A stretch of 64,000 nt of DNA from Thermoanaerobaculia bacterium (GTDB lineage Bacteria > Acidobacteriota > Thermoanaerobaculia > Multivoradales > UBA5704): assembly GCA_035490435.1 (NCBI GenBank), contig DATHEF010000069.1, positions 8,180-72,179 of the forward strand, read 5' to 3'. The position numbers and the translations under genes were made by a program. This document shows positions 9,171 to 37,743 of the stretch, piece by piece. The notes under the pieces were generated by a model. It ran no database searches. It worked only from the letters and a program-made list of their open reading frames with translations, and had not been told where the DNA came from. How positions within the stretch are numbered: the stretch's first letter is position 1; each line of letters starts with the position of its first letter.

Positions 9171-9194
9171 CAGAGAATCAGCGAATCGGCCGGA

Positions 9195-10058: not shown

Positions 10059-13000
10059 TTACGTCTCGACCGCCCGCCCCAGTCCCTCGTCGCCGGTCTC
10101 CGCCACCCGCGCCCGCAGGGCGTGCTCGATGCAGCTCCGCAGCCGTGCCGCGAGCGTCTCGGCATGCGGCGGGAAGTGCATCGAGAGATGGTTGCCGGGA
10201 GCCTCGTGGACCTCGGCGCCGCCGAGCGCCAGCCCGGCCCAGACGGCGTCGTCCCCCAGCCCCTCCTCGGCGCGGATATAGAACAGGCTGGTGTCGAACG
10301 GCTGCGGCTCGTAGGCGCGCACCGCCTGCCGGTTGGCGTGCACCACCCGCACCAGCCGCCGCAGCTCGGGCAGGCCGAACGACCCGGCGAGGGTGCCCGC
10401 CCGCCGTCCATGGTCGAGGATGAGCCGCAGGCGCTCCTCCGGCGCGAGCGCGCGGAGATCGCCGAGCGAAACGCCCGGAGCCCCCTGGGCGACGTGCTGC
10501 AGGATCGAGAGCTCGGCATCCCCTTCCGCGTCCCCCTGCTGGCGCGCGAAGCGGGCCGGGTCGGGCGCGTCGAGCAGCGCCAGGAACGCCACCTCCCGCT
10601 GCAGGGAGCGCAGCTTGCGGGCCATCTCGAAGGCGATCAGCCCGCCCAGCGAGCTGCCGGCCAGGAGGTAGGGGCCCTGGGGCTGGAACGAGAGCAGCGC
10701 GTTGACGTAGACGGCCGCCATCTCCTCGACGGTCGTCAGCGGCTCCTCGTCGGCGGCGAAGCCCACCGCCTGGAGGCCGTAGACCGGCTGCTCCGGCCCG
10801 AGCGCCGCCACCACCTGGCGGTAGAGGAACAGCTCGCCGGAGAGCGGGTGGACGAGGAAGAGCGGCGGCTCCGAGCCCCCCGGCTGCAGGCCGACCAGCA
10901 CGGAGGGGATCGGCGACCAGCGCTCCCCGGGCTCCTCCGGCTTGACGTCGTAGCCGAGCCGGGCCGCGAGGTCCCGCGTCCCGCCGTCGAGGGACTCCAG
11001 GGCGTGGCTCTCCCGCCACCTCTCCGCCACCCGCGCCTCGACCCCCTGGTACTGGTGGAACTTGACGTCGCCCAGCATGCGCGACTCGGCGTGGACGCCG
11101 TCGGTCATGCGGGCCGACTTCCGCTTGTAGGGCTCCGCCATGTCGGGGTGGTACTCGAGCCCCAGGAACTCGCAGATCCCGCGCAGGATCGCCTCCGGCT
11201 CGCGCAGCAGGTCCTCGAAGCGGACCCAGTGCTGGCGGCCGGCCGGCACGCCGCCCAGGAACTCCACGATGTTCTCGTGGCTCTCCCGCCAGATCAGCTC
11301 GGCGAGCTGGCGCCGGGAGAACGGGTGCTCGTAGCGGAAGAAGAGCTGGTCGAGCTTGGCTTCCTCGAAGGAGTGGATCATGCCCAGCGGATGGCGGATG
11401 AGGTGGATGTAGCGCGGCTCCTCGAACCCCTCCTCGGCCCGCCGCAGCACCGCCGGATCGAGCGCGTAGGACGGGGTCTTGTCGACCAGGATGCGGTCGC
11501 CGAGCCACTCCTGCAGCCGGCCGTAGAATTCGAGCGCCGTCAGCCCCTCCCGCTCGCAGCCGGCGACCAGCGCCTCGGCCTCCTCGGCGCCGCAGCCGCG
11601 GATCTCCATGACGGCGCGGATCACCCCCTCGAGCCAGAAGGCGTCGCGGCCGCTGAACGCCGCCCGGCGCTCCTGGAGCGTGTTGAAGGAGAGCAGCTCC
11701 AGCTCCGGCGGCGAGAAGAGCCGCGGATGGCCGCCGAGCATCACCCGCATCAGGGTGGAGCCCGAGCGCGGCGGCGAGAGCACGAAAACCGCTTTGGGGT
11801 TCCTGGCCGGGGCCTGCGCCAGCGGGGCGAGCGGCCGGATCAGACTCCGCAGCTCCGCCAGCTCGGCGTCGCCGGCGGCCGCCACCGCCGCCGCCCGCCC
11901 GCCCGAGCTGCCCAGGGCACCCCGGCCGAACAGCCTCGCCACCCCCTCCGGATGCTGGTCGATCAGATAGGCGGACATCTCGGCGATCGTGGGATGGTCG
12001 AAGATCACCACCACGTGGACGATCTCCCGCAGCTTCTCCTGCAGCCGGCTGACCAGCACCGCGCCGGTGATCGAGCTCCCCCCCACCGCGAAGAAGTCGT
12101 CGTGCACCCCGACCTGGGAGACCTTCAGGACCTCCTGCCAGAGGATGGCCAGGAACCGCTCGAGATCGTTCGCCGGGGCGACATAGGAGGCCTCGAGCAC
12201 CGATCCCGCCGCTCCGGGCGCCGGCAGGGCGCGGCGGTCCACCTTGCCGTTGGCGGTCAGCGGCATGCGGTCGAGCGCCACCAGGGACGACGGCAGCATG
12301 TACTCGGGGAGAGTGGCGGCGAGCGCCTCCCGCAGCTCGGCCAGGCCGGGCGCGGCGGCGCCGGCCGGCACCACGTAGGCCACCAGACGCCGCTCCGCCC
12401 CGTCCTCGCGGGCCAGCACCACTGCCTCGCGCACCGCCGGATGAGCGGCGAGCGCCGACTCGATCTCCCCCAGCTCGATGCGGAAACCGCGGATCTTCAC
12501 CTGGTGGTCGATCCGCCCCAGGTACTCGAGGTCGCCGTCGGCCAGGAAGCGCGCCAAGTCGCCGCTGCGGTAGAGCCGCGAGCCCGGCTCGCCGTAGGGA
12601 TCGGGCACGAAGCGCTCCGCCGTCAGCTCCGGCCGGCCGAGGTAGCCCAGGGCGAGGCCGGCGCCGCCGACGTGGATCTCTCCCGGCACTCCCGCCGGCA
12701 GCGGCTGGGCGGCGGCGTCGAGCACGTAGAGCCCGAGGTCGGGGATCGGCCGGCCGATGACGCTGCCGGCGCCGGCCACCTCCGTCCATCCGACCGGGCG
12801 ATAGGTGACGTGCACCGTCGTCTCGGTGATGCCGTACATGTTGATCAGCCGCGGCGTCTGATCGCCATGGCGCTCGAACCAGGGCGCGAGGCTCGCCGGC
12901 TCCAGCGCCTCGCCGCCGAAGACCACGTAGCGCAGGGCGAGGTCCGGCGCCGCTCCGCCGAGCGCCGACTCCTCGGCCCAGATGAGCTGCCGGAACGCCG

Positions 13001-16000
13001 ACGGCGTCTGGTTGAGCACCGTCACCCGCTCGGTCGCCAGCAGGTCGTAGAACGCCTCGGGCGAGCGGCTCACCCAGTACGGCACGACCACCAGCCGGCC
13101 GCCATGAAGCAGGGCGCCCCACAGCTCCCAGACCGAGAAGTCGAAGGCGTAGGAGTGGAACAGCGTCCAGACGTCCTCGGCGCCGAAGCCGAACCAGGGC
13201 TCGGTGGCGGTGAACAGCCGCACGGCGTTGCCGTGCCGCACCACCACCCCCTTGGGCTGGCCCGTCGAGCCCGAGGTGTAGATGACGTAGGCCGGGTAGT
13301 CCGCCGCGACCGCGACCCGCGGATCGCCGGCGCTCTCGCCGAGGATCCGCTCGCGGTCGCGATCGAGCAGGATCACCCGGGTGCCGGGGCCGGGCTCCGG
13401 CAGGACGGCGGCCAGCGACTCCTGGGCGATCAGCACCGGCACCTGGCTGTCCTCCAGCATGAAGGCCAGCCGCTCCCGCGGATACGCCGGATCGAGGGGC
13501 ACGTAGGCGCCGCCGGCCTTGAGCACGGCGAGCATCGCCACCACCATCCCGACGGACCGCTCGAGGCAGAGGCCCACGAGATCCCCAGGCGCGACCCCTG
13601 AAGCGATCAGGTGATGCGCCAGCCGGTTCGCTCTCTGGTCGAGCTCGCCGTAGCTCAGCCCCTCGCCTTCGCAGCTCACCGCGATCGCCTCCGGCGCGCG
13701 CGCCGCCTGGGCCGCGAAGATCTCGTGCAGGCAGGAGCCGCCGAGCGCTTCCGACCGGCGCTCCTCGAGACCGAGCTGCCGGCGTTCCGCCGCGGTGAGG
13801 ATCGGCAGCTCCGCCAAGCTCCGGTCGGGATCGGCGGCGGCGCCGGCGATCAGCATCTCGAAGTGCCGGGACATGCGCGCGAGGGTGGCGCGGTCGAAGA
13901 GGTCGGTGTTGAACTTCCAGACGCCGAGGAGGCCGCCGGCGCCCTCCCGCAGGTTGAGCACGATGTCGAACTTGGCGCTCTGGCTGCTCCCCTCGACCGG
14001 GCTCAAGGTGAGGCCGGGCAGCTCGAGGGCGGCGGCGGCGGCCGCCTGCTGGAACTGGAAGACCACCTGGAACAGCGGCGAGCGCGACAGGTCGCGCTCC
14101 GGCTGCAGCTCCTCGACCAGCTTCTCGAACGGCAGGTCCTGATGGCTGAGGGCGCCGAGGGCGACCTCGCGCACGCGGTCGAGCAGCTCGCGGAAGGCCG
14201 GCCGGCCCGACAGGCCGGTGCGCATCGGCAGGGTGTTGACGAAGAAGCCGATCAGCGGCTCGAGCTCGCGGCGGTCCCGCCCGGCGACGGTGGCGCCGAC
14301 GATCACGTCGTCCTGCCCCGAGTAGCGGTAGAGCAGCGCCTGGAAGCCCGCCAGCAGCGTCATGTAGGAGGTCGCCCCCTGCCGCCGGCCGAGGTCGAGG
14401 AACGCCCGGCTCGCCTCGCGGCCGAAGGCGAGCGGCTCGTCGGCGCCGCGGAACTGCTGGACGGCCGGCCGCGGGCGGTCGGTGGGGAGCTGCAGGACGG
14501 CGTGCCCGGCGAGCACCCGCCGCCAGTAGGCGAGCTGCGACTCCAGAACCTCGCCGCGCAGCCACTGCCGCTGCCAGACGGCGAAGTCGCCGTACTGGAC
14601 GGCGAGCTCGGGCAGCGGCGACGGCTCACCGGCGAGCAGGGCCGGGTAGAGGGCCGCGAGCTCGCCGATCAGGACCCCCATCGACCAGCCATCCGAAACG
14701 ATGTGATGCGTCGTCAGCAAGGCGACGTGCTCGTCCTCGCCGGAGCGCAGGAGCGTGGCGCGGATCAGCGGGCCGGCGCCGAGATCGAACGGCCGCCGCG
14801 CCTCGACACCGGCGAGCCGGCGGACGGCCGCCTCGCGCTCCTCTTCCGGTAGCCGTCGCAGGTCGATCAGCGGCATCTCCAGCGCCGGCTCCGCCACCAC
14901 CTGCACCGGGGTTCCGCCGCGCACGGCGAAGGTCGTGCGCAGGGCCTCGTGGCGGCGCACCACCTCCCGCAGGCTGCCGCGCAGGGCGGCCACGTCCAGC
15001 ACGCCGCGGAAGCGGACGGCGGTGGGCATGTTGTAGGTGGCCGTGCCCGGCTGGAGCTGCTCCAGGAACCAGAGCCGCTGCTGGGCGAAGGAGAGCGGCA
15101 GGTCGCCGCCGCGTGGCACCGGCACCAGCGGCGGCGCGGTCAGTCCGGAACCGGCGCCGAGGGCGGCTTCCACCGCCTCGGCCAGCGCGGCGACCGTCGG
15201 CCGCTCGAACAGCAGGCGCAGCGGCAGCTCGACGCCGAAGCTCTCGCGCACCCGGGAGATCACCTGCGTCGCGAGCAGCGAATGGCCGCCGAGGTCGAAG
15301 AAGCTGTCGTGGATGCCGACCGTCTCGCGCGACAGCAGCGCCGCCCAGATCGCCGCCAGCCGCTCCTCGGCCGGATTGCGCGGCGCCGCGAAGCCGGCGG
15401 CGGCGCTCCGGCGCTCCGGCGCCGGCAGGGCGCGGCGGTCGACCTTGCCGGTCGGCGCCAGCGGCAGGGCCGCCATCACCACGAAGTCCGCGGGCACCAT
15501 GTAGGCCGGCAGGGCGGCGAGCAGGAACCGCCGCAGCTCCCCCTCCTCCGGCGCCTCGCCCGGCTGGAAGACCAGGTAGGCGGCGAGGCTGCGGGTGGGC
15601 CCGTCCTCGCGGTCGACCACCGCCACCTCGCGCACCGCCGGATGGCGGGCGAGGACGGCCTCGATCTCCCCCAGCTCGACCCGGAAGCCGCGGATCTTGA
15701 CCTGCTGGTCGACCCGCCCGGCGAACTCGATGGCGCCGTCCGTCCGGTAGCGGGCGAGGTCGCCGGTGCGATAGAGGCGCCCGCCGGCATCGCCCGAGAA
15801 CGGATCGGGAACGAACTTCTCGGCCGTCAGCGCCGGCTGGCGCAGGTAGCCGCGCGCCACGCAGAGGCCGCCGAGGAAGATCTCCCCCGGCATGCCCACC
15901 GGCACCGGCTGCAGCTCGCGGTCGAGCAGATAGACGCGCGCCTTCGCCGTCGGCCGGCCGATCGGCAGCGTGCGCGGCGGCGCTCCCCGCTCGCAGAGCC

Positions 16001-19000
16001 AGGAGGTGACCGAGATCGTCGCCTCGGTCGGGCCGTAGCGGTTGAGCAGATCGGCGCCCGGCAGGACCGCGTAGAACTGCCCCGGCAGCGGGGCGGGGAC
16101 CGTCTCGCCGCCGGTGATGACGGTGCGCAGGCTGGCGCAGCCGTCGAACCCCGGCTGCTCGAACAATACGGAGAGCAGCGCCGGGGGGAAGGAGGCGTAG
16201 GTGATCCCCTGCTCGCGGATGAGATCCACCAGATAGGCCGCGTCCTGCTGGCCGCCGGGACGGGCGAGCACGGTCCGGCCGCCGGCGGCGAGCGGAGCGA
16301 AGATCTCGAGCAGCGAGACGTCGAAGCTGATCGTCGTCTTCTGGAGGAAGGCGTCGGCCGCGGTCACGTCCCCCGTGCGGGCGTATTGCAGGCGGTTGCC
16401 GAGTGCGCGGTGGGAGACCACCACCCCCTTCGGCTGCCCGGTCGAGCCCGAGGTGTAGATGACGTAGGCGGGATGGTCCGGGAGCACCGGGACGCCCAGA
16501 TCTCGCTCGCTCCCGACGGCGGGGCCGTCGAGCGAGTCGAGCGGGACGATCCGGAGGCCATCGCGCGCCGGGAGATCCGGCACCAGCCGCTCCTGGGCCA
16601 GGAGCAGCCCGATGCCGGCGTCCTCCATCATGAAGGCCAGCCGCTCGGCCGGCAGCGCGGGATCGAGCGGCAGATAGGCGCCGCCCGCCTTGAGAATGGC
16701 GAGCAGCCCCACCACCATCTCGAACGAGCGCTCGGCGCTGATGCCCACCACCGACTCCGGTCCCACTCCGAGATCCCGGAGATGCCGGGCGAGCCGGTTG
16801 GCGCGCGCGTTCAGCTCGCCATAGCTGAGGCTCTCCGCCTCGAAGACGACGGCGGCGGCCTGCGGAGTCCTCGCGGCCTGCTCCTCGACGAGCCGGTGGA
16901 CGAAACCCTCGTCGGGGTAGTCGGCCGGCGGCCGGTTCCACTCCACCAGGAGCTGCTCCCGCTCGGGGGCGGTGAGCAGCGGCAATTCGGTGAGACGGCG
17001 GGCGGGATCGGCCGTCAGCTCCGCGAGCAGGGTCTGGAAGTGCCCGGCCCAGCGGGCGATCGTCTCCGCCTCGAAGAGGGCGGTGCTGTAGACCCACTGC
17101 CCGAAGATCTGCGGGCCGTTGTCGAACACGGTCAGGGAGAGGTCGAACTTCGAGACCGCGAAGTCCTCGGCCACCGGGGCGAGGGTGAGGCCGGGCAGCT
17201 CGAAGCGCGCCGCCGGGGCGTTCTGGAAGGCGAGCATCACCTGGAACAGCGGCGGGTAGCTCAGGTTGCGCTCGGGAGCGATCTCCTGCACCACCTTCTC
17301 GAACGGCACGTCCTGGTGAGCGTAGCCCTCCAGGGACGCCCGGCGAACCCGCTCCAGCAGCGTCGCGAAGCCGGGCGCCCCGGCGAGGTCGGCGCGCAGC
17401 ACCAGCGTATTGACGAAGAACCCGATCAGCGGCTCCAGCTCCTTGCGGTTGCGGCCGGCTACGGGCGAGCCGACGGCGAAGTCCTCCTGCCCGGAGTAGC
17501 GGCCGAGGAAGGCCTGGAACGCGGCCATCACGGTCATGAAGCTGGTCGCTCCGCGCTCGCGGCTCAGCATCCGCAGGGCCGCCGAGAGCTCGCCCGAGAG
17601 CACGAAGCCGTGCGTCGAGCCGCGGAAGCTCTGGACGCTCGGGCGCGGCCGGTCGCCCGGGAGCTGCAGGACCGGCACGCCGGCGAGCCGCTCGCGCCAG
17701 TAGGCGAGCTGCCGCTCGATGGCCGCCCCTTCCAGCCACCGCCGCTGCCAGCGGGCGAAGTCGACGTACTGCACCGGCAGCGCCGGCAGCGGCGACGGCT
17801 CCCCTGCCACGAAGGCGGCGTAGAGAGCCGCGACCTCGCGCACCAGCACGCCGATCGACCAGCCGTCGCAGACGATGTGATGGGCGGTGAACGAGGCGAC
17901 GTGATCCTCGGCGCCCAGCCGCACCAGCAGGGCCCGGATCAGCGGGCCGGCGGCGAGGTCGAACGGCTCGCCGCCGTAGGCCGCGACGGCATCGCGGGCC
18001 GCGAGATCGCCCGCCGCGGCGGGCAGCGCCGACAGATCGACCACCCGCGGCTCCAGCCGCGGCTCCGGGCCGATGATCTGGACCGGGTTCCCCTGCGCCG
18101 CCGCGAACGTGGTGCGCAGCGCGGCATGGCGGCGCGCGATCTCTTCCAGGCTGCGGCCGAGCACCGGCACGTCGAGGCGACCGAGCAGACGCACGCTCAT
18201 CGAGACGTTGTAGGTCCGCGTCCCCGGATCGAGCTGGTCGAGGAACCAGAGCCGCTCCTGCGAGAAGGAGAGCGGCAGCGCCTCCCCTTCCCGCCAATCC
18301 CCGGCTTCGAGGACCGCTGCCTCCCCCTCCAGCCCGGCGATGACGCCCACGCGCTCGCGCTCGACGTCGTAGCCCAGCCGGGCCGCCAGCCGCCACGTCG
18401 CCTCGCCGAGGAAGTCGTGGTCATAGGCTTCGCGCCAGCGTTCGGCCACCTCCGCGTCGACCCCGCTATGCTCGTGAAACTTGACGTCCCCGAGCATCCG
18501 CGACTCGGCGTAGAGGCCGTCCGTCATCCGCGCCCGCCGCTTGACGTACGGCACGGCCATGTCGGGGTGATAGTCGATCCCGAGCGACGCGCACACCCCG
18601 CGCAGAACCCCCTCGGGGTCCTTCAGGAGCTCCTCGAAGTGGAGGGTCTGCTGGCGCTCCGGCGGGACTTCGGCGAGGAAGTCGAGGATGTTCTGATGCG
18701 CGATCCCCCACAGCGCCTCGGCCAGCTCCCGGCGGTCGAACGAGTGATTCTCGGCAAAGAAGATCTGGTCGATCCGGGCCTCCTCGAAGGAGTGGATCAT
18801 GCCGTAGGGGTGGCGAACCAGATGCAGATAGCGGGCGCCGCCGAACACTTCCTCGGCGCGCCGCAGCGTCGCCGGATCCCAGGCGTAGGTCGGCGTCTTG
18901 TCGACCAGCAGGCGCGGCGCGATGCGCTCCTGGAGGATGCGGTAGGCCTCCTGCGTCGTCGTGCCGTTCCATTCGAGCTGCTCGACCAGCGTGCCCGCCT

Positions 19001-25685: not shown

Positions 25686-25704
25686 CGCCAGATTCACATC
25701 CGGA

Positions 25705-28140: not shown

Positions 28141-28181
28141 GGTGGTTGGCGCCCTTGAGGTCAGAGCCTTTTTACAACGAA

Positions 28182-28207
28182 GCCCGCCACGCAAGCGCGT
28201 GGCGGGC
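28182..28207 (-). terminator. 11-bp GC stem, 4-nt loop hairpin downstream of the CRTAC1-like gene
   Basis: GCCCGCCACGC-aagc-GCGTGGCGGGC. On the minus strand it is followed by TTCGTTGTAAAAAGG, a T-rich but imperfect U-tract. Confidence 0.5.
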
Positions 28208-28264
28208 GGCGACCTGCGGCTATGAACGTTTCAGGGTCTCGTGGTCAGAGTCCCGAACACGGCC

Positions 28265-30355
28265 TCAGGGATTCGTCTCGGAGTCGAAGGCGCGCAGCGC
28301 GCTCGTCAGGAGCCGCTTCGAGTACTTCTTGTTGATCACGCTCTTGGTGGTCAGGCTCTGCAGCGACTTGTCGACGCACTGCCGGTAGAGCTCGCGGTGA
28401 GCCTTGCGCGACGCGCGCGGCCCCAGGTTGTCCGTCCAGTTGGCGTAGTCGCACGGGATCTCGGGCACCACCAGCTTCTCGCCGGCCTTCACGTCATAGA
28501 GGCGGTTGTGCAAGCCGCCCGGCCAGAAGATTTCGGCGGTTCCCTGGGCCGTCTTGCCGAGGCCGAACGTCGTCCGCAGGCTGTCCTGCGAGGCGTAGCT
28601 CGCGCCACCCACGACCGGGCGGATCGAGGTCTTGCCGCCGTCGGGCGTGAAGCTGATCACGGCGCCGATACCGTCACGGTTGACCTTGCCGCCCGCCGTC
28701 AGGCCCTTGGTGCCCCGCAGCGTGAGCTGGGCGAACGCGTTGCCGTTGTTGGCGCTGTTGATCTCGATCGAGAGGGTACCGTCGTTGATCACCGGATCCA
28801 CGTACTCGAAGCCGGCCGGCGTGAACGCGAAGAAGGCGGTTTCGAACGCCGCGATCTTGTCGAACACCGGGCTGCGCGGCGTCGGCGAGGCGGTCGGCAC
28901 GAAGAGGAAGAAGTTGAACGGCGTGATGTCCATCTCGGAGACGGTGAGAATGTCGTCGAAACCGTCGTTGTTCAGGTCGCCGACGGCGACACCCTCGACC
29001 AGGCGCGGCCGGTGGTCTTCCAGAATCGCCTCGCCGTCATACAGCATGTTGGCCGAGCAAGTGCCCGAGTTCTGCAGCAGCACGCCCGGGTTGTCGAGCT
29101 GGATCTGCCGCAGCATGTCGACCTTGCCGTCGTAGAAGATGTCGACGTCGCCGTCGTTGTCATAGTCGAGCGGCGACGCGCCCCAGCCGAAGGGGGTTCC
29201 GCCGAGGCTGCCGAGACCCGGATCCTTGAAGGTGCCGTTGGCGTTCTGCAGGTACCAGCGGGAGGCCCGGCCCGGCGTCAGGTAGCTGCCGGTGTCGGTG
29301 ACGAAGAAGTCGATGGTGCCGTCGCAGTTGAGGTCGGTGAAAGCGTAGCCCATGAAGCCGCCGGCGACCTTGAGACCCAGATTGAAGGTCTCATCGGTGA
29401 AGTGGCCGGTGCCGTCGTTCTTGAGCAGACGCATGTAACCGCGCTCGGTGTCGCCGGGACCGGCATCCTCGGCTTCCATCAGGTCGAGGTCGCCGTCCTG
29501 GTCGATGTCGACCAGCGCGATGCCCCAGGTGACGTTCCGGCCGGCCGGTACGTTGGCGCCCAGCAGGTTGCGGATGCCCGAGCTCTGGCTGGCGTTCGTG
29601 AAGGTGAGATTGCCGTTGTTGACGAACAGATAGTCGGGCTCGGTTCCGGAGATGAACCCCGCCTGGAAGACCGGGCGGCGATGCGTCCACGGGTGGTAGG
29701 TGGTGCCCACCACGATGTCGAGCAGGCCGTCGTTGTTGACGTCGCCCATCGAGCAGCCCGCGTAGAACCAGGAGGGCTGGCCACCCACGCCGGCGGTGGG
29801 GGTGATGTCCGCGAAGGTGCCGTTGCCGTTGTTGTGGTACAGGTGGTTCGCATAACCGGAACCGAGGACGTACAGCTCCTGGCTGCCGTCGTTGTCGAGG
29901 TCGCCGAAGCAGACACCCGAGCTGTCGTGATCGACCAGCGCCACGCCGGCCTGGGTCGCGACATCGACGAAGGTGGTGGAGCCGGTCTCGATCAGCATGT
30001 TCTTGTAGAGGCTGTTGGCCGCCCCGGGACCATTGGTGGTGTAGACGTCGAGGTCGCCGTCGTTATCGAAGTCGAGGACGGCGATACCGGGAGCCCCGTG
30101 CCACTTCTGGGAGGATTCCCGGACTTTCGCGGCGATCTGCGGGATCGGGATCGGCGACGCGGCGGCGGCCGCATCGTGCACGGCTTTCCGATCCGGGGTC
30201 GCGATGCGGTGATACGAAATCCCCGCACCTCCATCATGCGCGATGTTCGTGAACGTGACGCCACCGTCGGCGTAGGCAGCGCCCACGCCCGCCAGCAGCA
30301 GCGAAATGCCACTGAAGGCTCTGATCGTTCTTCTCAAGGCAATCTCCTTTTCCAT
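28265..30355 (-). CDS. secreted CRTAC1-family protein (FG-GAP/VCBS beta-propeller repeats plus ASPIC/UnbV C-terminal domain)
   Basis: Signal peptide RRTIRAFSGISLLLAGVGAAYA. Repeated DxDxDG loops are present (DFDNDGDLDVY, GDLDNDGSQELY, GDVNNDGLLDIVV, VDIDQDGDLDLM, DYDNDGDVDIF, GDLNNDGFDDIL). The C-terminus GKVNRDGIGAVISF...GGASYASQDS is UnbV_ASPIC-like. It has its own Shine-Dalgarno sequence GGAGG. Confidence 0.9.
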   Translation of the reverse strand: MEKEIALRRTIRAFSGISLLLAGVGAAYADGGVTFTNIAHDGGAGISYHRIATPDRKAVHDAAAAASPIPIPQIAAKVRESSQKWHGAPGIAVLDFDNDGDLDVYTTNGPGAANSLYKNMLIETGSTTFVDVATQAGVALVDHDSSGVCFGDLDNDGSQELYVLGSGYANHLYHNNGNGTFADITPTAGVGGQPSWFYAGCSMGDVNNDGLLDIVVGTTYHPWTHRRPVFQAGFISGTEPDYLFVNNGNLTFTNASQSSGIRNLLGANVPAGRNVTWGIALVDIDQDGDLDLMEAEDAGPGDTERGYMRLLKNDGTGHFTDETFNLGLKVAGGFMGYAFTDLNCDGTIDFFVTDTGSYLTPGRASRWYLQNANGTFKDPGLGSLGGTPFGWGASPLDYDNDGDVDIFYDGKVDMLRQIQLDNPGVLLQNSGTCSANMLYDGEAILEDHRPRLVEGVAVGDLNNDGFDDILTVSEMDITPFNFFLFVPTASPTPRSPVFDKIAAFETAFFAFTPAGFEYVDPVINDGTLSIEINSANNGNAFAQLTLRGTKGLTAGGKVNRDGIGAVISFTPDGGKTSIRPVVGGASYASQDSLRTTFGLGKTAQGTAEIFWPGGLHNRLYDVKAGEKLVVPEIPCDYANWTDNLGPRASRKAHRELYRQCVDKSLQSLTTKSVINKKYSKRLLTSALRAFDSETNP

Positions 30356-30374
30356 TTGCTAAACCTCCATCATT

Positions 30375-30394
30375 GACAGATGAATGTCTCTGTC
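30375..30394. promoter_or_regulatory. inverted repeat GACAGA-N8-TCTGTC 20-40 bp upstream of the CRTAC1-like start (candidate operator)
   Basis: gacagatgaatgtctctgtc read directly from the sequence. No protein partner is identified. Confidence 0.25.
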
Positions 30395-30468
30395 TCGCAA
30401 GTCTTCCTATCGCTAGAGTGCCGGCCCGGTCCGAAACCGAGACAACGGGTCCTCTCAACCTTCAAGGG

Positions 30469-33400
30469 CTAGGAAAAGAGCTTGTCGAGCTCCTCCTGGC
30501 TGAGCTCCGCGTCGGGGAAGTCCGAAGGGGTGTATACGCTCAGGACTCCGGAGCGGCAGACCTCGATCAACGAGCGGAGCTCGGTCAGGAAACCTGCCGC
30601 GATCGCCGCGACCGCGCCGCCGAGCGCCCCCTCCCCGCCGCTTCGCCAATCGAAGCGCAGCCCTTCGCCGTCGAGCTGGCCGGTCACCGCCAGGGCGGCT
30701 CCCGCCGGGCGGAGCCCGGTGGTCTGGGCCTCTCCGTGGTAGGAGAAGCTCACTTCAGGGAACGGCAGGGCCGCCAGCCGGCGCCGGACATCCTCGTCCC
30801 CCGTGAGCTCGCCCAGGAGGATGGGGTCGACGCCGTTCGATACCGCGCCGCGGACCTGCTCCTTGACCAGGCGCAGCTCCTGGACCAGGTCTTCCGATTC
30901 CCCGACGTCGAGCACCATGGGGAGCGAAGCGCTGAAGCACCCTGCCGTCCGTGGCAGATCGGCGTTCAGCGGATCGGCGTCGCGCGCGTCCACTTCGACC
31001 CGCAGCAGGACCGGACGCCTGACGGCACCGCGGGACAGCGTCTTGGCCAGGGCGGCCAGCACGGCCTCCTCAGGCCGCACGCGCTGCAGATCTGGGATCT
31101 CGGTGAGCAGGGCCCGGGTCTCCTCGGCGTCGAGCCGGACCGAGACGGTCTCCCGGCTCTCGCCGCCGCCCCAGAGCGCCGGATCGATCGCCGGCACGGC
31201 GCCGGAGCTCTCCCAGGCCACCAGCCAGGCGCCCGACTCCGGGCGCAGGCCCTGGCTCCTCACCCGCTCGATCCGCTCCGCCAGCCAGGGGTGGAAGCTC
31301 CCGGCGGCCGGCGGCGGGGCGGCCTCCCCTCCCGCCGCGAGCTGCTGACACGCGCTCCTCAGCTCCTCGCGCAGGAAATCCCAGGAGTGGGTGTCCACCG
31401 CCACCGGATGGGCGACCACCAGGACGCGCTCCGCGTTCTCCTCCCCTTCGCTCAGCACCGCGGCGGCCAGCAGGACGCCCCGCTCCGGATCGAGGCTCGT
31501 CCGCAGCTCTCGGGCCAGCCTCGCCAGGTCCGCCTCGCGGTCCGCCGGCGAGGTGACGGCGAGCGCCATCTCCCCCACCGTGAGCTCGGGCGCGGACCCC
31601 GGGACCTGCGTCCAGCCTTCCGGCCCCGGCACGAAACGAGTGCGCAACGCGTCGTGCCGGGCCACCACCTGCGCGAGCGCCCGGCGTACGACCTCGCGCT
31701 CCGCTCCGGCGGCTATCCGCGGCAGCGACCAGGTCGTGTACCAGCAGGGGGCCGCCGCGGGGCCGGCGAGCAACTCCCGCTGGAAGGAGGTCACCGGCAG
31801 CGGTTCGGCCGCCGTCTCCGCCTGCGGAGAGGCATCCGTATCCAGAAGCTTGGCAAGCTCCGCGATGGTCTGATGCTCGAAGAGCTGATCGGGAGCGAGC
31901 CGGAGCCCGGCGGCGCTCGCCCGGGCGATGAGCTGGATGCCGATGATCGAATCGCCGCCGAGATCGAAGAAGTTGTCGTTGACGCCGACCTGCTCGAGGC
32001 CGAGCGTCGCCTGCCAGACGTCGGCCAGCCGGCGCTCGATCCCGGGCGCGGGGGCGACGTAGGGGGTCGGGATGTTCGGCCGCTCGTGGATCACCGCCGA
32101 CGGTGCCGTGACCCCTCCCGCCGCCGCGAACAGCGACGCCTGGTTCATCGCGCTCACCTGGGCGATCAGCGCGTGGAGATCCTTGGCCGTGACCACGATC
32201 TGCGCGGCCTCGAGGTCCCGGGACAGCGCCCGGCGCAGTGCCTCCACTCCCTCGTGAGGGAGGATGCCGTCGCTCTCCTCGTCGTCCGCCTCGTCCGCCG
32301 CGTCCGCCGCCACCTCCACCGCCGCCGGCCGAGCGGGCTCGGCCACGATCTGGGCCTCGGCCTGGGGCGCCGGAGCCTCCGCCCCACGGCCGGTCTTGAT
32401 CGTCTGGCTGTTGATCCGCTTCAGCATGAAGTGGTCGATCTCGATCAGCACCTCGCCGTCTTCGCCCAGGATCATCACGTCGACCGAGGTCGTCTCATTC
32501 CGCGAGCCGGGCTCGCCATGGCGGCGCAGATAGCTGTAGAAGCGCTGCGGCAGGTGGCGGTGAACCCGCACCCTCTGATAGGAGAGCGGCAGGTAGCTGT
32601 CCTCCTCGAAGAAGCCGGCGATGCCGGTGGCGACGTCCAGGAGGGCCGGGTGCAGGCCGTAGTGCAGGGCGTCTTCAGCGAACTCCTCGGGAAGCTCGAC
32701 GCGGGCGATCCCTTCGCCACGGCCCAGGTAGATCTTCTTGAGGCTCTGCCAGTGAGGCCCCCAGGAGACGAACGCCTCCCCCTCGCTCATCACCGGTCCG
32801 GCGATCTCCATCTCACGCTCGCTGCAGCGGGCGAGGATCTCGGCGACGTCGTAGCGCGACCGGGCAGCCGGCTCGCCCAGCGCCTGCACCCTGCCACGGG
32901 CATGCGGCTGCCAGGTCGGCTCGCCGATGCCGGACTGCGGATCGATGCGGCTGGTCACCCGGAAATTGAAGGCATCCCCCTCCTTCTCCAGGAGGACACG
33001 GATCCGCCGCTCCCCCTCGGACACCAGCAGGGGCGAGAGGAAGAAGACGTCCCGCAACTCGACCCCGCCGTCCGGCGAGTACCCCTCGAAGAGGGCGCCG
33101 TGGTGCAGAAAGGCGGCCCGCCCCAGCTCGAGATAGGTGGTGCCGGGCAGGGTGGGAACCCCCATCAGCTTGTGCTCTGCCAGCACCCAGTGCCGGGCGG
33201 CGCTGAGATCGGTCTCGTAGATGGTCTGGTCCGCCATCTCGAAGACGCAGCGGTCGAGCAGTGGATGAATGTCCTCGCCCTTCGTCTGCTTCGAGGAGCC
33301 GGTCGAGGCGCCGCGGGTGATCCCCGCCGCCACCGCCATGCCGACCTCCTCCCAGGCTCCCCAGTTGATCGACACCGTCCGTGGCCCGCCGGCCAGGGCC

Positions 33401-36400
33401 ACGTCGTGGGCGAGCGCGTCGAGAAAGTTGTTGGCCGCGCCGTAATCGACCTGCCCCAGGCCGCCCGCCACGGCGATGGTCGACGAGCAGAAGACGACGA
33501 AGTCGAGGGGCACGCCGGCGAAGGCGGCCAGCAGCGAACGGGTGCCCTCCACCTTCGGCGCGAGCACCCGGCTCGCCGCTTCCGCGGTCTTGAGCTGGAT
33601 CAAGCCGCCGCCGGCCAGGCCGGCGGCGTGGATCACGCCGTGGACCTCGCCGAACCGGGCGATCGCCTGGCCGGCCAGGGCGCGCATCTGCTCCCGGTCG
33701 GTGACGTCGGCGCCGGCCACCAGCACCTCCGCACCGAGGGCCTCGATCTCACGGATCTTGCGGATCCGCTGACTGATGCGGTCCGTCTCGCCGTGATTGG
33801 CGAGCCACTCGTTCCAGGTGCTCGGGTCGGGCAGCGCCGTGACGCCGAGCAGCACGAGCCGGGCCCGGTACTCCCGCGCGAGGAACTCGGCGAAGGTCAG
33901 GCCCAGGCCGCCAAGGCCGCCGGTGATCAGGTAGACCCCCCGCTCGCGCAGCCGGACCGCCGCGGGGGCCGGCGCCTCCAGATGCACGGCCTCGTAGTCC
34001 TGCACCCAGCGGCCGCCGCCCCGGTAGGCGACCACCGGCCGCGCGGGCTCCGCGGTCGTTTCGGCGATCAGCCGCCCGGCCAGCGAGCCGTCGGCCGGCC
34101 AGGCGACATCCACGCTGACGCAACGCAGGTTCGCGTACTCCTGGGACATGGTCTTGAGCGGCCCCAACAGCATGGCCCGCTCGGGCAGCAGCCGGTCCTC
34201 GCCCGCGACCCGCTGCATGTGGCTGGAGACGACGACCAGATGGATGCGCTGGGTGACGCCGTTCTTGCCGAGCGCCTGGGTGAGGTAGAGCAGGCTCCAG
34301 AAGCTGCGCTCCGGCACCCGCGCGAGGGCCTGCGGATCGGCGGTGGCCGGCCCGACATTCCACAGGTGGAGCACGCAGTCCGGAAGGCCACCGGCGGCGG
34401 CGAGATCCTTGATCAGAGCGTCATGGTCCTCGCGCCGGCCCGGGGCGACCTCGTAGCTCCCCTCGCCGACCTTGCGGAAACTCTCGCCGGGCCGCACCAC
34501 GGTCACGCGCCGCCCCTCGCCGGCCAGCCGCTCGACCGCCCGCTCCCCGACTTCCCCCTCGTCGAGGAAGACCAGCCAGCGGCCGGCTCTCTCCACCTCC
34601 TCCGCCGACGGCACGGGCGGCAGCGAGGGCTTCCAGTAAGGAAGGTAGAACCAGTCGGCGATGTTCTCCTTCTTGTGGTGATCCACGGTGGCCCCCCCAC
34701 CGAAGGGGAGAGCTCCCTGGACCCGCTCGACCCAGAAACGCCGGCCCTCGAACGGGTAGGTCGGCAGGGGGACCCGCCGCCGGCGCTCGCGCGCGTAGAA
34801 GCCTTTCCAGTCCGGCTCGACGCCGTGCATCCAGAGCTGACCCAGCGCCTTGAGCAGAACCGGCAGATCCTCCTTCCGCTCCTTCGGATGGCGGAGCGAA
34901 GAGAGGACGACGTGGCGGGTGCCGCAGTCGGGGTGCTGCCGGACGAGGGTCGCCAGGGTCTGCCCCGGCCCGACCTCCAGCAGGACCCGTTGCGCGTCCT
35001 TGCACAGCTCGCGCACGCCGTCAGCGAAGCGCACCGCCTGCCGCAGATGTCGCGCCCAGTAGGACGGATCGGTCGCCTCCGCGTCGGTGATCCAGGTCCC
35101 GGTCACGTTCGAGACGTAGGGGATCTTCGGCGGATGGAGCTGGAGCTCCGCGAACCGCTCGACGAACGGCGCCAGGATCGGCTCCATCATCTCCGAATGG
35201 AACGCGTGAGACGTGTGGAGCGGCCGCGCGCCCACGCCGCGGGATTCGAGCTCGGCGCGCAGCGCCTCCACCGCCGCCTCGGGACCCGAGACCACACAGC
35301 GGTCCGGGGCGTTGATGGCGGCGAGAGAGAGCCCCGCGCCCAGCAGCGGCGCGACCTTCTCTTCGCTCAGCGGCACCGCGAGCATCCCTCCCGAGGGGAG
35401 GCTCTGCATCAGCCGGCCGCGCTCCGCCACCAGGGCGAGAGCGTCGTCAAGCTCGAAGACACCCGCGAGACAGGCGGCGACATACTCGCCGATGCTGTGC
35501 CCCATCATCGCCGTGGGCACGATGCCCCACTCCATCCACAGGCGGGCGAGCGCGTACTCGACGACGAACAGCGCCGGCTGGGTGAAGCGGGTCTGGCCGA
35601 GCCGCTCCGCGGCCTCGGCGTCGCCGTCCGCCGCGAGCAGAAGCTCCCTCAGGTCGAGCCCGAGGTGCGGCCGCAGCCGCTCGCAACAGAGGTCGACCTG
35701 AGCGCGGAAGGCCGGCTCCGACTCATAGAGACCGCGGCCCATCCCGGCGTACTGCGCCCCCTGCCCCGAGAAGAGGAAAGCGGCCGAGCGCTCGCGGCCG
35801 GGAGAGAAGGACGCGACGGACCACTCCGGGTCCTCCCCGGCCAGGATCCGGACGGCGTGCCCGGCGTCCCGGCAGACCACCGCCCGCCGGTGCTCGTGCA
35901 GCTTGCGCCCGACCTGCAGCGTGTGGACGACGTCGGCGAATTCGCTCTCCGGGTGCTCTTCCAGGTGAGAGGCGAGGTTCCCGGCCAGGGTGGCGAGGGC
36001 GGTGTCCGTGCGGGCCGAGAGGAGCAGGAGCTGCCAGGGACGGGACGGCGTGGCGGGCGCGGGTTCCGGAGCCTCCTCGAGGATCACGTGGGCGTTGGTG
36101 CCGCCCATGCCGAAGGCGCTCACACCGGCCCGGCGCGGCGTGCCGTTCGCCTCCCACTCGCGCAGGCGCGTGTTGACGAAGAACGGGCTGCTCTCGAAGT
36201 CGATCTGCGGATTCGGCGTTTCGAACAGCAGAGAGGGGGGGATCATTCGATGCTTCAGGGCGAGCACGGCCTTGATCAGGCTGGCCACGCCGGCCGCGGC
36301 GCCGAGGTGCCCGATGTTGGTCTTGACCGAGCCCAGGGCGCAGAACTGCCGCTCCTGGGTTTTCTCGCGGAAGACCTTGGTCAGCGCCGTCACCTCGATG

Positions 36401-37395
36401 GGATCTCCCACCGGAGTCCCGGTGCCGTGGGCCTCGACGTAGCTCAGCGTGTCGGGCTCGATGTCGGCGGCGGTCAGCGCGGCCCGGATGACCCGGTACT
36501 GGCCGTCGACGCCGGGAGCGGTGAAACCCACCTTCTGGGAGCCGTCGTTCGACACCGCCGACCCTTTGATCACGGCGTGGATGGTGTCGCCATCGGCCAG
36601 CGCGTCGGCCAGCCGCTTGAGCACCACGACACCCAGGCCGGTGCCGAAGATGGTCCCCTGGGCCTTGGCGTCGAAAGCCCGCACGTGCCCGTCCGGCGAG
36701 TTGATGTCCCCTTCCAGGTAGGGGTAGCCGACCTCCGGGACGCGGACCGAGACGCCCCCCGCGAGCGCCATGTCGCATTCGCCGCCCAGCAGTCCCTGGC
36801 AGGCCATGTGGACGGCGACCAGGGCCGTCGAGCAGGCGGACTGGACGTTGACGCTGGGCCCTCCCAGGTTGAGCTTGTAGGACACCCGGGTGGCCAGGTA
36901 GTCCTTCTCGTTGGAGATCTGCGCCGTCAGGTCGCCCACGGCACGCACCAGAGCCGGGTCCGAGTAGACGTTCATCAGGTAGAAGTTCATCCGGGAGCCG
37001 GCGTAGACGCCGATCCCCCCGGGGTAGCGTTCCGGGTCGTAGCCGGCGTCCTCCAGGGCGGCCCAGGAGGACTCCAGGAAGAGCCGGTGCTGAGGGTCCA
37101 TGACGTCGGCTTCGCGCGGGTTGACGCCGAAGAAGGCGGCATCGAAGAGGGCGACGTCCTTGATCGTGCGCGCGACCTTGACGTAAGTCGGCGACTTGCG
37201 CATCTTGGGGGGGACGCTCGCCAGCTCCTCGTCGCTGAGCACCGTCCGCGACTCCACTCCATCCCGCAGATTGCGCCAGAACTCCTCGACGCTCTCGGCG
37301 CCGGGAAAACGGCCGGCCATCCCGACGATGGCGACCTCCAGGCCGTTGCCGTCGTGGCTCTCCGCTTCGCTCCTGTACGTCTCGTCACTGCTCAT
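30469..37395 (-). CDS. hybrid PKS/NRPS megasynthase: KS-AT(malonyl)-KR-DH-T-(inactive E-like domain with COM-type tail)
   Basis: Hand-located domains: KS ~36080-37340 (VQSACSTALVAVH, HGTGT, NIGH); AT ~34925-35790 (GHSIGE, HAFHS indicating malonyl type); KR ~33400-34590 (GVYLITGGLGGLG); DH ~32410-33270 (HPLL, HxxxGxxxxP as HKLMGVPTLP, LHPALLD); T ~31860-32060 (FFDLGGDSI, Ser codon 31948-31950); C/E-fold domain ~30472-31803. Confidence 0.95.
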   Translation of the reverse strand: MSSDETYRSEAESHDGNGLEVAIVGMAGRFPGAESVEEFWRNLRDGVESRTVLSDEELASVPPKMRKSPTYVKVARTIKDVALFDAAFFGVNPREADVMDPQHRLFLESSWAALEDAGYDPERYPGGIGVYAGSRMNFYLMNVYSDPALVRAVGDLTAQISNEKDYLATRVSYKLNLGGPSVNVQSACSTALVAVHMACQGLLGGECDMALAGGVSVRVPEVGYPYLEGDINSPDGHVRAFDAKAQGTIFGTGLGVVVLKRLADALADGDTIHAVIKGSAVSNDGSQKVGFTAPGVDGQYRVIRAALTAADIEPDTLSYVEAHGTGTPVGDPIEVTALTKVFREKTQERQFCALGSVKTNIGHLGAAAGVASLIKAVLALKHRMIPPSLLFETPNPQIDFESSPFFVNTRLREWEANGTPRRAGVSAFGMGGTNAHVILEEAPEPAPATPSRPWQLLLLSARTDTALATLAGNLASHLEEHPESEFADVVHTLQVGRKLHEHRRAVVCRDAGHAVRILAGEDPEWSVASFSPGRERSAAFLFSGQGAQYAGMGRGLYESEPAFRAQVDLCCERLRPHLGLDLRELLLAADGDAEAAERLGQTRFTQPALFVVEYALARLWMEWGIVPTAMMGHSIGEYVAACLAGVFELDDALALVAERGRLMQSLPSGGMLAVPLSEEKVAPLLGAGLSLAAINAPDRCVVSGPEAAVEALRAELESRGVGARPLHTSHAFHSEMMEPILAPFVERFAELQLHPPKIPYVSNVTGTWITDAEATDPSYWARHLRQAVRFADGVRELCKDAQRVLLEVGPGQTLATLVRQHPDCGTRHVVLSSLRHPKERKEDLPVLLKALGQLWMHGVEPDWKGFYARERRRRVPLPTYPFEGRRFWVERVQGALPFGGGATVDHHKKENIADWFYLPYWKPSLPPVPSAEEVERAGRWLVFLDEGEVGERAVERLAGEGRRVTVVRPGESFRKVGEGSYEVAPGRREDHDALIKDLAAAGGLPDCVLHLWNVGPATADPQALARVPERSFWSLLYLTQALGKNGVTQRIHLVVVSSHMQRVAGEDRLLPERAMLLGPLKTMSQEYANLRCVSVDVAWPADGSLAGRLIAETTAEPARPVVAYRGGGRWVQDYEAVHLEAPAPAAVRLRERGVYLITGGLGGLGLTFAEFLAREYRARLVLLGVTALPDPSTWNEWLANHGETDRISQRIRKIREIEALGAEVLVAGADVTDREQMRALAGQAIARFGEVHGVIHAAGLAGGGLIQLKTAEAASRVLAPKVEGTRSLLAAFAGVPLDFVVFCSSTIAVAGGLGQVDYGAANNFLDALAHDVALAGGPRTVSINWGAWEEVGMAVAAGITRGASTGSSKQTKGEDIHPLLDRCVFEMADQTIYETDLSAARHWVLAEHKLMGVPTLPGTTYLELGRAAFLHHGALFEGYSPDGGVELRDVFFLSPLLVSEGERRIRVLLEKEGDAFNFRVTSRIDPQSGIGEPTWQPHARGRVQALGEPAARSRYDVAEILARCSEREMEIAGPVMSEGEAFVSWGPHWQSLKKIYLGRGEGIARVELPEEFAEDALHYGLHPALLDVATGIAGFFEEDSYLPLSYQRVRVHRHLPQRFYSYLRRHGEPGSRNETTSVDVMILGEDGEVLIEIDHFMLKRINSQTIKTGRGAEAPAPQAEAQIVAEPARPAAVEVAADAADEADDEESDGILPHEGVEALRRALSRDLEAAQIVVTAKDLHALIAQVSAMNQASLFAAAGGVTAPSAVIHERPNIPTPYVAPAPGIERRLADVWQATLGLEQVGVNDNFFDLGGDSIIGIQLIARASAAGLRLAPDQLFEHQTIAELAKLLDTDASPQAETAAEPLPVTSFQRELLAGPAAAPCWYTTWSLPRIAAGAEREVVRRALAQVVARHDALRTRFVPGPEGWTQVPGSAPELTVGEMALAVTSPADREADLARLARELRTSLDPERGVLLAAAVLSEGEENAERVLVVAHPVAVDTHSWDFLREELRSACQQLAAGGEAAPPPAAGSFHPWLAERIERVRSQGLRPESGAWLVAWESSGAVPAIDPALWGGGESRETVSVRLDAEETRALLTEIPDLQRVRPEEAVLAALAKTLSRGAVRRPVLLRVEVDARDADPLNADLPRTAGCFSASLPMVLDVGESEDLVQELRLVKEQVRGAVSNGVDPILLGELTGDEDVRRRLAALPFPEVSFSYHGEAQTTGLRPAGAALAVTGQLDGEGLRFDWRSGGEGALGGAVAAIAAGFLTELRSLIEVCRSGVLSVYTPSDFPDAELSQEELDKLFS
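30472..31803 (-). other. epimerisation/condensation-fold domain with degenerate active site (HPVAVDT instead of HHxxxDG) and TPSD-type COM donor tail
   Basis: VVAHPVAVDTHSW at ~31390-31410. The C-terminus is ...SVYTPSDFPDAELSQEELDKLFS (30472-30534). Confidence 0.7.
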
Positions 37396-37404
37396 CGCTG
37401 TCCA

Positions 37405-37743
37405 CTATCCCTTCTGCTGCTGCAGGCGCCGCCGCAGGCGATCCCGCCCCTGGCGTAGTTGAGCGGAACGATCGCCGGACGGTCCGGCCGGAGAGGCGGG
37501 CGCCGCTCCCTGTTCCAGATGAGCGGCGAGTGCCCGCACCGTCGGGTTGTTGAAGATTTCGACCAGCAGGATCTCGCGGCCGAACCGCTCCTGCAGCCGC
37601 TCGTGGACCTGGATCAGCAGCATGGAGGTGCCGCCGAGGTCGAAGAAGTTGTCGTCCACGCCGACCCGCTCGACCTTCAGGACCTCCTGCAGGATCGCGG
37701 CGAGGGTCAGCTCCGCTTCGGTCTGGGGCGCTTTGTAATCCAA
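37405..37743 (-). CDS. free-standing peptidyl carrier protein
   Basis: YKAPQTEAELTLAAILQEVLKVERVGVDDNFFDLGGTSMLLIQV is the PCP core LGGxS. The start is TTG at 37743, preceded by GGAG. The stop lies 9 nt upstream of the PKS start. Confidence 0.85.
   Translation of the reverse strand: MDYKAPQTEAELTLAAILQEVLKVERVGVDDNFFDLGGTSMLLIQVHERLQERFGREILLVEIFNNPTVRALAAHLEQGAAPASPAGPSGDRSAQLRQGRDRLRRRLQQQKG

Follow-up and report, generated by a model that had tools for sequence, protein, structure and literature searches.

Carrier-dependent sulfotransferase (ST) domains are known in two settings. One is the off-loading of chains from polyketide synthases (PKSs), as in CurM of the curacin A pathway and in OLS, where an acyl carrier protein (ACP), an ST and a thioesterase (TE) follow one another. 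The other is the loading module of certain nonribosomal peptide synthetases (NRPSs): in OciA (cyanopeptolin of Planktothrix) and DysB (dysinosin), an ST embedded in the NRPS acts on a glyceric acid starter loaded through FkbH, and the sulfate ester stays in the product (PMC2533009, PMC6520454). A related case is SulN of the sulfazecin pathway, which is reported to sulfonate an NRPS carrier-bound peptide in a reaction that depends on 3'-phosphoadenosine-5'-phosphosulfate (PAPS) and precedes release by the TE (PMC11298585). Here we describe a hybrid PKS/NRPS cluster in a 64-kb window (the whole stretch of DNA that was analysed) from an uncultured soil Acidobacteriota bacterium of the Thermoanaerobaculia type, in which two ST domains belong to the elongation and termination modules of an NRPS, one after a Ser module and the other after a Thr module. 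An earlier note on this DNA had proposed an acyl or vinylogous Ser-Ser-X-Thr scaffold with 'sulfate chemistry', a term that could mean either sulfate esters that are kept or a sulfate that serves as a leaving group.

Sulfotransferase domains within the NRPS

Both ST domains lie on the minus strand and match Sulfotransfer_3. ST1 (18342-19259; 1e-25) is placed between the second carrier (T) domain, T2, and the third condensation (C) domain, C3, and ST2 (10932-11834; 1.4e-26) between T4 and the TE. The earlier note had left the ST fold to be checked. ST2 aligns end to end with the STs of CurM (4gbm, E = 4e-67) and OLS (4gox, 2e-58), and both domains keep the whole PAPS loop (PRSGST), so that the assignment is sound. 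ST1 and ST2 are 39 to 41% identical to the CurM and OLS STs (41% for ST1 with CurM) and 61% identical to each other. The PAPS loop is conserved in more than 70 relatives, and the Glu of a PPEL motif and a DK(T/S)P(S/T)Y motif are likewise conserved in ST1, ST2 and the relatives. We take this Glu to correspond to Glu60 of CurM, the catalytic base, and the position two residues after it to that of CurM His62. The His is not kept: CurM and OLS read PPELHLL, whereas ST1, ST2 and all NRPS-linked STs read PPELELL in an alignment that included 70 domains of L002-L059. At this signature position, CurM and OLS alone have His, and three atypical relatives have N, G or Y. Since the NRPS-linked STs also share three short insertions relative to CurM and OLS, they form a distinct subfamily, whose members, to judge from their sequences, act on carrier-bound hydroxy amino acids.

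The resemblance to the ACP-ST-TE units of CurM and OLS covers the ST family, the carrier-tethered substrate and a hydroxyl placed beta to the thioester. As in CurM, ST2 stands between a carrier domain and a TE; ST1 does not, being internal and followed by a C domain (T2-ST1-C3), which also has no counterpart in OLS. In place of the KS-AT-KR-ACP module (ketosynthase, acyltransferase, ketoreductase, ACP) found upstream in CurM and OLS, an NRPS module with an adenylation (A) domain for Ser or Thr and a T domain is present here, and the beta-hydroxyl of Thr makes the chemistry analogous to that of CurM although the module is not the same. The active-site neighbour and the three small insertions are further differences, and the TE is an ordinary NRPS TE, unlike that of CurM. 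Compared by description, the STs of OciA and DysB differ in acting on a glyceric acid starter in loading modules, where ST1 and ST2 would act on Ser and Thr in elongation or termination modules. SulN is reported to be a stand-alone enzyme that works in trans and catalyzes N-sulfonation of diaminopropionate rather than O-sulfation.

The window is collinear, flanks included, with three independent assemblies at about 96% nucleotide identity, namely a Danish Acidobacteriota metagenome-assembled genome (MAG; L001, CAVXIG010000064.1) and two JGI metagenome contigs (L063 and L064). Against these copies, the ratio of non-synonymous to synonymous substitution rates (dN/dS, calculated by the Nei-Gojobori method) was 0 to 0.37 for every domain, indicating purifying selection throughout; it was 0.15 for ST1, 0.14 for ST2, 0.14 for the epimerisation-type domain of the PKS (E*) and 0 for the free-standing peptidyl carrier protein (PCP; versus L063). 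Collinearity in three assemblies, together with these low values, rules out an assembly artefact, chance or a pseudogene. In L001, the 97%-identical MAG copy, stop codons or frameshifts are present within the fourth A domain (approximately 8132-9700); as such lesions are absent from the window, L063 and L064, they probably stem from errors of long-read assembly rather than from decay.

Linkage of sulfotransferases to hydroxy amino acids

With ST2-TE as the query, 62 loci were retrieved from a set holding one genome for each GTDB species; the close relatives are all MAGs. Their domains were mapped by tblastn (some loci contain frameshifts), every A-domain code was extracted, and duplicates were removed. 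Nearly all loci came from Thermoanaerobaculia, Holophagales and other Acidobacteriota MAGs, the few others being from Thalassomonas sp. RHCl1, Beggiatoa, Thiomargarita, Thiotrichaceae, Desulfamplus and a cyanobacterial bin. Among the unique A domains followed by T-ST, 49 of 52 had a code of the Ser, Thr or Tyr type (22, 18 and 9, respectively, the last being DA(S/A)TVAAVCK), compared to 14 of 87 among A domains not placed before an ST (Fisher p = 4.7e-21; the loci are related and no phylogenetic correction was applied to the comparative statistics, so this is not a strict probability). DASTVAAVCK is a Tyr code of the Stachelhaus tables. The ST domains themselves fall into three groups, Ser, Thr and Tyr, that follow the amino acid of the preceding module; ST1 belongs to the Ser group and ST2 to the Thr group. 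The earlier observation that an ST follows each of two hydroxy-amino-acid positions (Ser2 and Thr4) thus extends to a pattern across 62 loci. On-line O-sulfation of hydroxy amino acids is well supported by this enrichment, and we hold the sulfation step itself to be highly probable.

The Tyr-linked STs are 65 to 67% identical to ST1 and ST2; modules bearing them are present, for example, in L014, L015, L023, L025, L046 and L051. Clade-specific indels, such as would give a longer acceptor channel, were sought in them and none were found. Four conserved positions set the Tyr-linked clade apart from those linked to Ser and Thr (P to L, H to R, H to Q, and AE to WS).

On present evidence, neither the logic of the assembly line nor the ST family is novel; what is new is to find the two combined, and repeatedly so across a lineage. 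The ST family appears here routinely as a tailoring domain in the modules for NRPS elongation and termination, and its sub-clades correspond to Ser, Thr and Tyr. Uncultured Acidobacteriota hold dozens of these modules, and a small number are present in cyanobacteria and in sulfur-oxidising Gammaproteobacteria. The earlier note had recognised no characterised pathway with this domain string, and we found none with the module type A(Ser/Thr/Tyr)-T-ST in open-access papers and bioRxiv. Protein-database searches with ST2 and with the KR and dehydratase (DH) region of the PKS returned mostly unnamed fragments and no functional names.

Outside the Acidobacteriota, Thalassomonas sp. RHCl1 (L052) has a small hybrid cluster, A-T-KS-AT-KR-T-C-A(Thr)-T-ST-C-A(Gly)-T-TE; no other cultured strain with an NRPS-linked ST was found. 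Loci of a Thiotrichaceae (L043) and of Beggiatoa (L059) match this cluster from the KS on, the residue ahead of the ST being Thr or Ser, and a short Desulfamplus contig (L056) carries ST-C-A(Gly)-T-TE alone. The protein database also holds many entries of 430 to 520 aa with only a carrier domain and an ST. Some of these, on long contigs, look stand-alone, such as P0104 from Synechococcus sp. CBW1004 (436 aa, ST only by Pfam). In other cases the contig is short and the entry may be just part of a gene.

The NRPS and its predicted product

The NRPS gene spans 10059-25841 of the minus strand as an open reading frame, and 10059-25685 when counted from the ATG at 25685, which lies 19 nt after the stop codon of the upstream permease gene and is the likely true start (about 5208 aa). 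Pfam hits and core motifs give the string C-A-T-C-A-T-ST-C-A-T-C-A-T-ST-TE: four HHxxxDG motifs, four each of the adenylation core motifs A3 and A8, four carrier-serine motifs, two Sulfotransfer_3 domains and one Thioesterase domain. This agrees with the string that had been read by hand, as do the strings of the PKS and the free-standing PCP described below.

The specificities of the A domains are code-based. Codes were read by alignment to the GrsA reference, a segment of which reproduces DAWTIAAICK, and they agree with those of the earlier note (Ser, Ser, no assignment, Thr). A1 (22812-24344, minus strand) has DVWHVSLVDK and A2 (19617-21164, minus strand) DVWHLSLVDK, both Ser codes, and A4 (12192-13754, minus strand) has the Thr code DFWNVGMVHK. 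No specificity was assigned to A3 (15402-16934, minus strand; DVLSIGRISK), whose pocket contains an Arg, as judged from the code; its substrate may be acidic. The A3 code and close variants of it are found in about 12 modules in L004, L005, L007, L009, L012, L022, L025, L031, L036, L041 and L050, often beside ST modules. In open-access papers and bioRxiv, no mention of DASTVAAVCK or DVLSIGRISK was found.

The domain order and codes agree with the collinear logic proposed earlier, a starter followed by Ser-Ser-X-Thr, and suggest the following pathway. The free PCP would deliver a starter, which may be an amino acid ('vinylogous') or an acyl group and would be loaded by an enzyme encoded outside the window, to a single PKS module that would add a malonyl unit (AT), reduce it (KR) and dehydrate it (DH), yielding a 2-enoyl thioester. 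The inactive E* at the end of the PKS would then dock with C1, the first C domain of the NRPS, which is of the DCL type, in a manner resembling an E-to-C junction of the TycA/TycB type. The NRPS would add Ser, Ser, X (possibly acidic) and Thr, and ST1 and ST2 would move sulfate from PAPS onto the side-chain hydroxyls of Ser2 and Thr4 while these residues are still carrier-bound. The sulfated intermediates would pass through an ordinary LCL-type C domain and an ordinary NRPS TE, and the expected product would be an anionic N-acyl tetrapeptide with O-sulfo-Ser and O-sulfo-Thr, which would leave the NRPS by hydrolysis or cyclisation and the cell through the permease. The data show what the domains are and how they are ordered, the A-domain codes, the homology of the STs, their link with hydroxy-amino-acid modules and the conservation of the locus; we infer the docking pairs, the timing of sulfation, the retention of sulfate and the export route.

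Fate of the sulfate

We give this whole explanation, with the sulfate retained, a probability of roughly 0.45. As to the fate of the sulfate, we lean only modestly toward retention, since neither the C domain nor the TE downstream is unusual and no match to a TE of the CurM type was found. The TE (10122-10889, minus strand) is a type I NRPS thioesterase (Pfam Thioesterase, nucleophile motif GSSLGG). Its best PDB match is the AB3403 NRPS TE (4e-25), other best matches being the TEs of fatty acid synthase (FAS) and Pks13, and no chain named CurM is among its 60 best PDB matches (E <= 10). In L025, a TE of this clade stands behind a plain T domain with no ST between them, with 55 to 59% identity, a value equal to the identity with other ST-linked TEs, and a very different type of TE is paired with an ST in L011 and L013. 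The ordinary NRPS matches and the ST-free use in L025 rule out a TE that is ST-specialised or CurM-like. The C domains that follow STs are ordinary LCL domains: over 156 aligned C domains, mean identity was 0.51 within the class and 0.49 between classes. A special dehydrating clade of post-ST C domains was considered and rejected, as no well-discriminating column was found in the alignment, which gives no signal for either fate. A further point for retention comes from the nine to eleven STs placed after modules of the Tyr type (DASTVAAVCK), since the sulfate of a phenol cannot be lost by elimination.

Several observations weigh against retention. The only characterised close relatives, the STs of CurM and OLS, install sulfate as a leaving group (PMC11730487), and the terminal T-ST-TE of the NRPS mirrors the ACP-ST-TE of CurM. 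The post-ST C domains have no conserved positively charged residues at the donor site. Among the loci examined, none of the nine Tyr-type modules had ST-TE behind it; ST-TE was seen after Ser or Thr modules and after two modules with codes of the DLKNFGTVCK type, to which no specificity is assigned. If Tyr-type modules carry beta-hydroxy-Tyr, all ST substrates could therefore be beta-hydroxy thioesters. In the 64-kb window, no gene was found for a phosphopantetheinyl transferase (PPTase), an MbtH protein, PAPS synthesis or supply, or an acyl ligase. Finally, no natural product with O-sulfo-Ser or O-sulfo-Thr was found in open-access papers and bioRxiv, the nearest item being the N-sulfoserine of scleritodermin A.

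The leading alternative, which we consider possible although less probable than retention, is that the sulfate activates the hydroxyl and then leaves, as in CurM and OLS. At Ser2, sulfation by ST1 would be followed by beta-elimination to dehydroalanine (Dha), spontaneously on the thioester or through the ST or C3. At Thr4, sulfation by ST2 and hydrolysis by the TE would be followed by loss of CO2 and sulfate, giving an N-(1-propenyl) enamide, or elimination would yield dehydrobutyrine (Dhb). The ST domains would then be a PAPS-driven route to dehydro residues in NRPSs. Besides the function of the closest homologues and the domain order at the TE, this is favoured by L053 (5471-11194) and L057 (5306-10895), in which the string KS-AT-KR-T-ST-C places an ST of the CurM family (signature residue N or G) after modules that make beta-hydroxyacyl thioesters, and before a C domain rather than a TE. 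A beta-hydroxyl shared by all substrates would be possible if the Tyr-type code stood for beta-hydroxy-Tyr; DASTVAAVCK also codes for beta-hydroxy-Tyr in glycopeptide NRPSs. However, the Tyr-linked STs are nested in the same family without indels, and no hydroxylase was found in the flanks of L003 and L025, which hold only a converging NRPS gene end and housekeeping genes, flanks being mostly NRPS. Sulfate loss is further disfavoured by the TE, given the lack of CurM among the 60 listed matches, the ST-free use of its clade and the different TE type paired with STs elsewhere, and by the post-ST C domains, which, unlike known dehydrating C domains, are not a specialised clade.

Parallels with the dehydrating modAA-type C domains and with the phosphorylation or glutamylation that precedes dehydration in lanthipeptides, in which the hydroxyl of Ser or Thr is made a leaving group on the way to Dha or Dhb, hold only if the sulfate leaves; the activator here would then be the sulfate of PAPS, and the downstream C domains do not form a distinct clade. 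Embedded STs would in that event be a third, PAPS-driven way to dehydro residues, giving Dha at Ser2 and an enamide terminus at Thr, and widespread in uncultured Acidobacteriota, a proposal that we regard as possible but less probable than retention. It would mean that the terminal-alkene logic of CurM and OLS has been transplanted into NRPSs.

A second alternative, which we judge improbable, is that the sulfate is displaced intramolecularly rather than eliminated: by an amide oxygen to give an oxazoline or methyloxazoline (Burgess-type), by nitrogen to give an aziridine, or by the carboxylate to give a beta-lactone on release. The evidence for sulfation applies to it equally, and because the NRPS has no heterocyclisation (Cy) domains, any heterocycle would need another route. 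Sulfate-leaving formation of aziridines is known from other pathways. Nevertheless, no sequence feature points to displacement, the Tyr-linked STs do not fit, and the C and TE domains are ordinary. Lastly, that the STs are relics or structural inserts and the product an unmodified acyl-Ser-Ser-X-Thr could draw on the replacement of the CurM active-site His (PPELH) by Glu and on the absence of PAPS-supply genes nearby, but it is most improbable given the dN/dS of 0.14 to 0.15 for both STs, the PAPS loop and catalytic Glu conserved in more than 70 domains, the tight co-variation of the ST with the upstream amino acid, and the universality of the Glu in the NRPS-linked subfamily, which makes it a signature rather than decay.

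Whether the sulfate is retained, as we modestly prefer, or lost, the outcome would be new in the literature searched, where neither an O-sulfo-Ser or O-sulfo-Thr peptide nor a sulfate-activated dehydration or decarboxylation in an NRPS was found. The PPELELL signature provides a genome-mining rule for sulfated or dehydrated positions, and for the engineering of NRPSs the ST domain offers a catalyst that is both compact and portable. The T-ST and T-ST-TE units are small and would lend themselves readily to tests in vitro.

The PCP and PKS genes

The free-standing PCP (37405-37743, minus strand; 112 aa) has one PP-binding domain (4.5e-17) with the serine motif GGTS and a basic C-terminal tail, and its gene ends 9 nt before the start of the PKS gene. 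Beyond the A domains of the four NRPS modules, no A domain, fatty acyl-AMP ligase (FAAL) or coenzyme A ligase (CAL) domain was found in the 64-kb window that could load it. The basic tail of the PCP and the acidic head of the PKS suggest a docking pair.

The PKS (30469-37395, minus strand; 2308 aa) was read as KS-AT-KR-DH-T-E* from Pfam, PDB matches and motifs. The Pfam order is KS, AT, Beta-ketacyl_N (the N-terminal subdomain of the KR), KR, DH, PP-binding and a Condensation-family domain. All coordinates that follow are on the minus strand. The KS (36046-37353) has its active-site Cys in QSACST, and its best PDB matches are KS-AT didomains of cis-AT systems, for example 8xju and CurL (4mz0). 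The AT (34906-35793) carries the motifs GHSIG and HAFH, the latter of which we take to indicate malonyl specificity. The KR, with structural and catalytic subdomains (33331-34578; Pfam Beta-ketacyl_N and KR), lies upstream of the DH; it keeps the tyrosine of YxxxN (YGAAN), and an LDD motif was not found in it. The DH (32386-33288; PKS_DH_N and PS-DH) has the HxxxGxxxxP motif (HKLMGVPTLP) and the catalytic Asp, and the carrier domain (31816-32058) has GGDS. Core motifs are complete and collinear in the KS, AT, KR, DH, C, A, T and TE domains of the assembly line; the only degenerate domain is E*, and the PKS domains other than E* look functional on this basis. The order KR before DH is unusual relative to textbook modules; in the protein-database search with KR-DH, it was frequent among PKS fragments of Acidobacteriota, Chloroflexota and Kouleothrix.

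The junction between PKS and NRPS

E* (30472-31743, minus strand), an epimerisation-type domain of the Condensation family, forms the C-terminal end of the PKS. Its best PDB matches, over E-type condensation-family domains, are chains of PvdL, TycB, BacC, GrsA and TycA. As its HHxxxD motif is degraded to HPVAVD and EGHGRE to EVDARD, it is taken to be catalytically dead. Its tail resembles a donor communication-mediating (COM) domain (TPSDFPDAELSQEELDKLFS). C1 (24372-25685, minus strand), which is of the DCL type by its PDB matches, has a COM-acceptor-like N-terminus (MKKENIENIYRLSPIQQGMLFH), and in the PDB it is matched best by C domains located after an E domain (McyB, PvdL, BacC, SrfA-C and TycB). 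The C domains of SrfA-C and TycB sit at E-to-C junctions between proteins. From these features we infer that E* and C1 may be a docking pair of the COM type, which would pass the polyketide to the NRPS despite two intervening genes.

The junctions of TycA/TycB and SrfA-B/SrfA-C thus share with the present one an E-domain fold, here with a TPSDFP...EELDKL tail, and a C domain of the type that follows E, SrfA-C and TycB being among the best matches of C1. They differ in that the donor protein here is a PKS and in that E* lacks the catalytic His (HPVAVD); it can therefore be only a scaffold or docking element. A metagenome scan with E* for relatives bearing a loader returned only L063 and L064, the two 96%-identical copies of the same locus. 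When E* was compared by tblastn with the 62 related loci, about 1 Mb of mainly NRPS sequence, no match exceeded 150 bits, and no match covering over half of E* was seen in the domain mapping, which leaves E* as the only E-type domain seen. Several NRPS genes in the related loci open with C1-like (DCL-type) domains; in L007 and L031, these come after a TE.

Accessory genes and genomic context

The cluster consists of five co-directional genes on the minus strand, operon-like in arrangement and with a third-position G+C content of 0.84 to 0.94. In the 5' to 3' direction, they encode the PCP, the PKS, an FG-GAP/ASPIC-UnbV protein, an ADOP permease and the NRPS. All three co-directional assembly-line genes of the earlier note are therefore present; the two genes between the PKS and the NRPS had been overlooked. 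The first of these (28265-30355, minus strand) encodes a secreted FG-GAP/ASPIC-UnbV repeat protein of 696 aa, a beta-propeller, identified by Pfam. The second (25705-28194, minus strand) encodes an 829-aa duplicated MacB/FtsX-type permease of the ADOP family, which matches TIGR03434 over profile positions 1-803 of 803 with 943 bits (NCBIfam cut-off 622); it is probably the exporter.

In L036 (1-3504), FG-GAP, ADOP and NRPS genes occur in the same order, with identities of 58% and 64%, and the NRPS, Thr-Ser(ST)-X(DVLSIGRISK-type)-Pro-like-Thr..., is a longer cousin of that of the window. In L022 (11876-16756), an FG-GAP and an ADOP gene lie between two ST-containing NRPS genes (identities of 47% and 51%). 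In both, the ADOP gene immediately precedes an NRPS gene. The recurrence of the pair beside ST-containing NRPSs in these two other genomes argues for its being a conserved part of the cluster.

The G+C content of the window is 65 to 75%; that of the cluster (0.65 to 0.75) shows no clear break from that of the flanks (0.68 to 0.74), and there is hence no compositional sign of recent transfer. Housekeeping genes border the cluster on both sides, as noted earlier. To the left are genes for a tetratricopeptide repeat (TPR) protein (9195-9983) and a pyrimidine-nucleoside phosphorylase (7887-9170), and further left those for CinA, LigT, PlsY, GpsA and GuaA. To the right, a tRNA-Arg(CCT) gene (37984-38060), directly upstream of the PCP gene, marks the cluster boundary; it is followed by genes for a phosphoribosyltransferase, PCMT and PNP, and farther right by those for FabZ, LpxD, Skp, BamA, ClpB and LysS.

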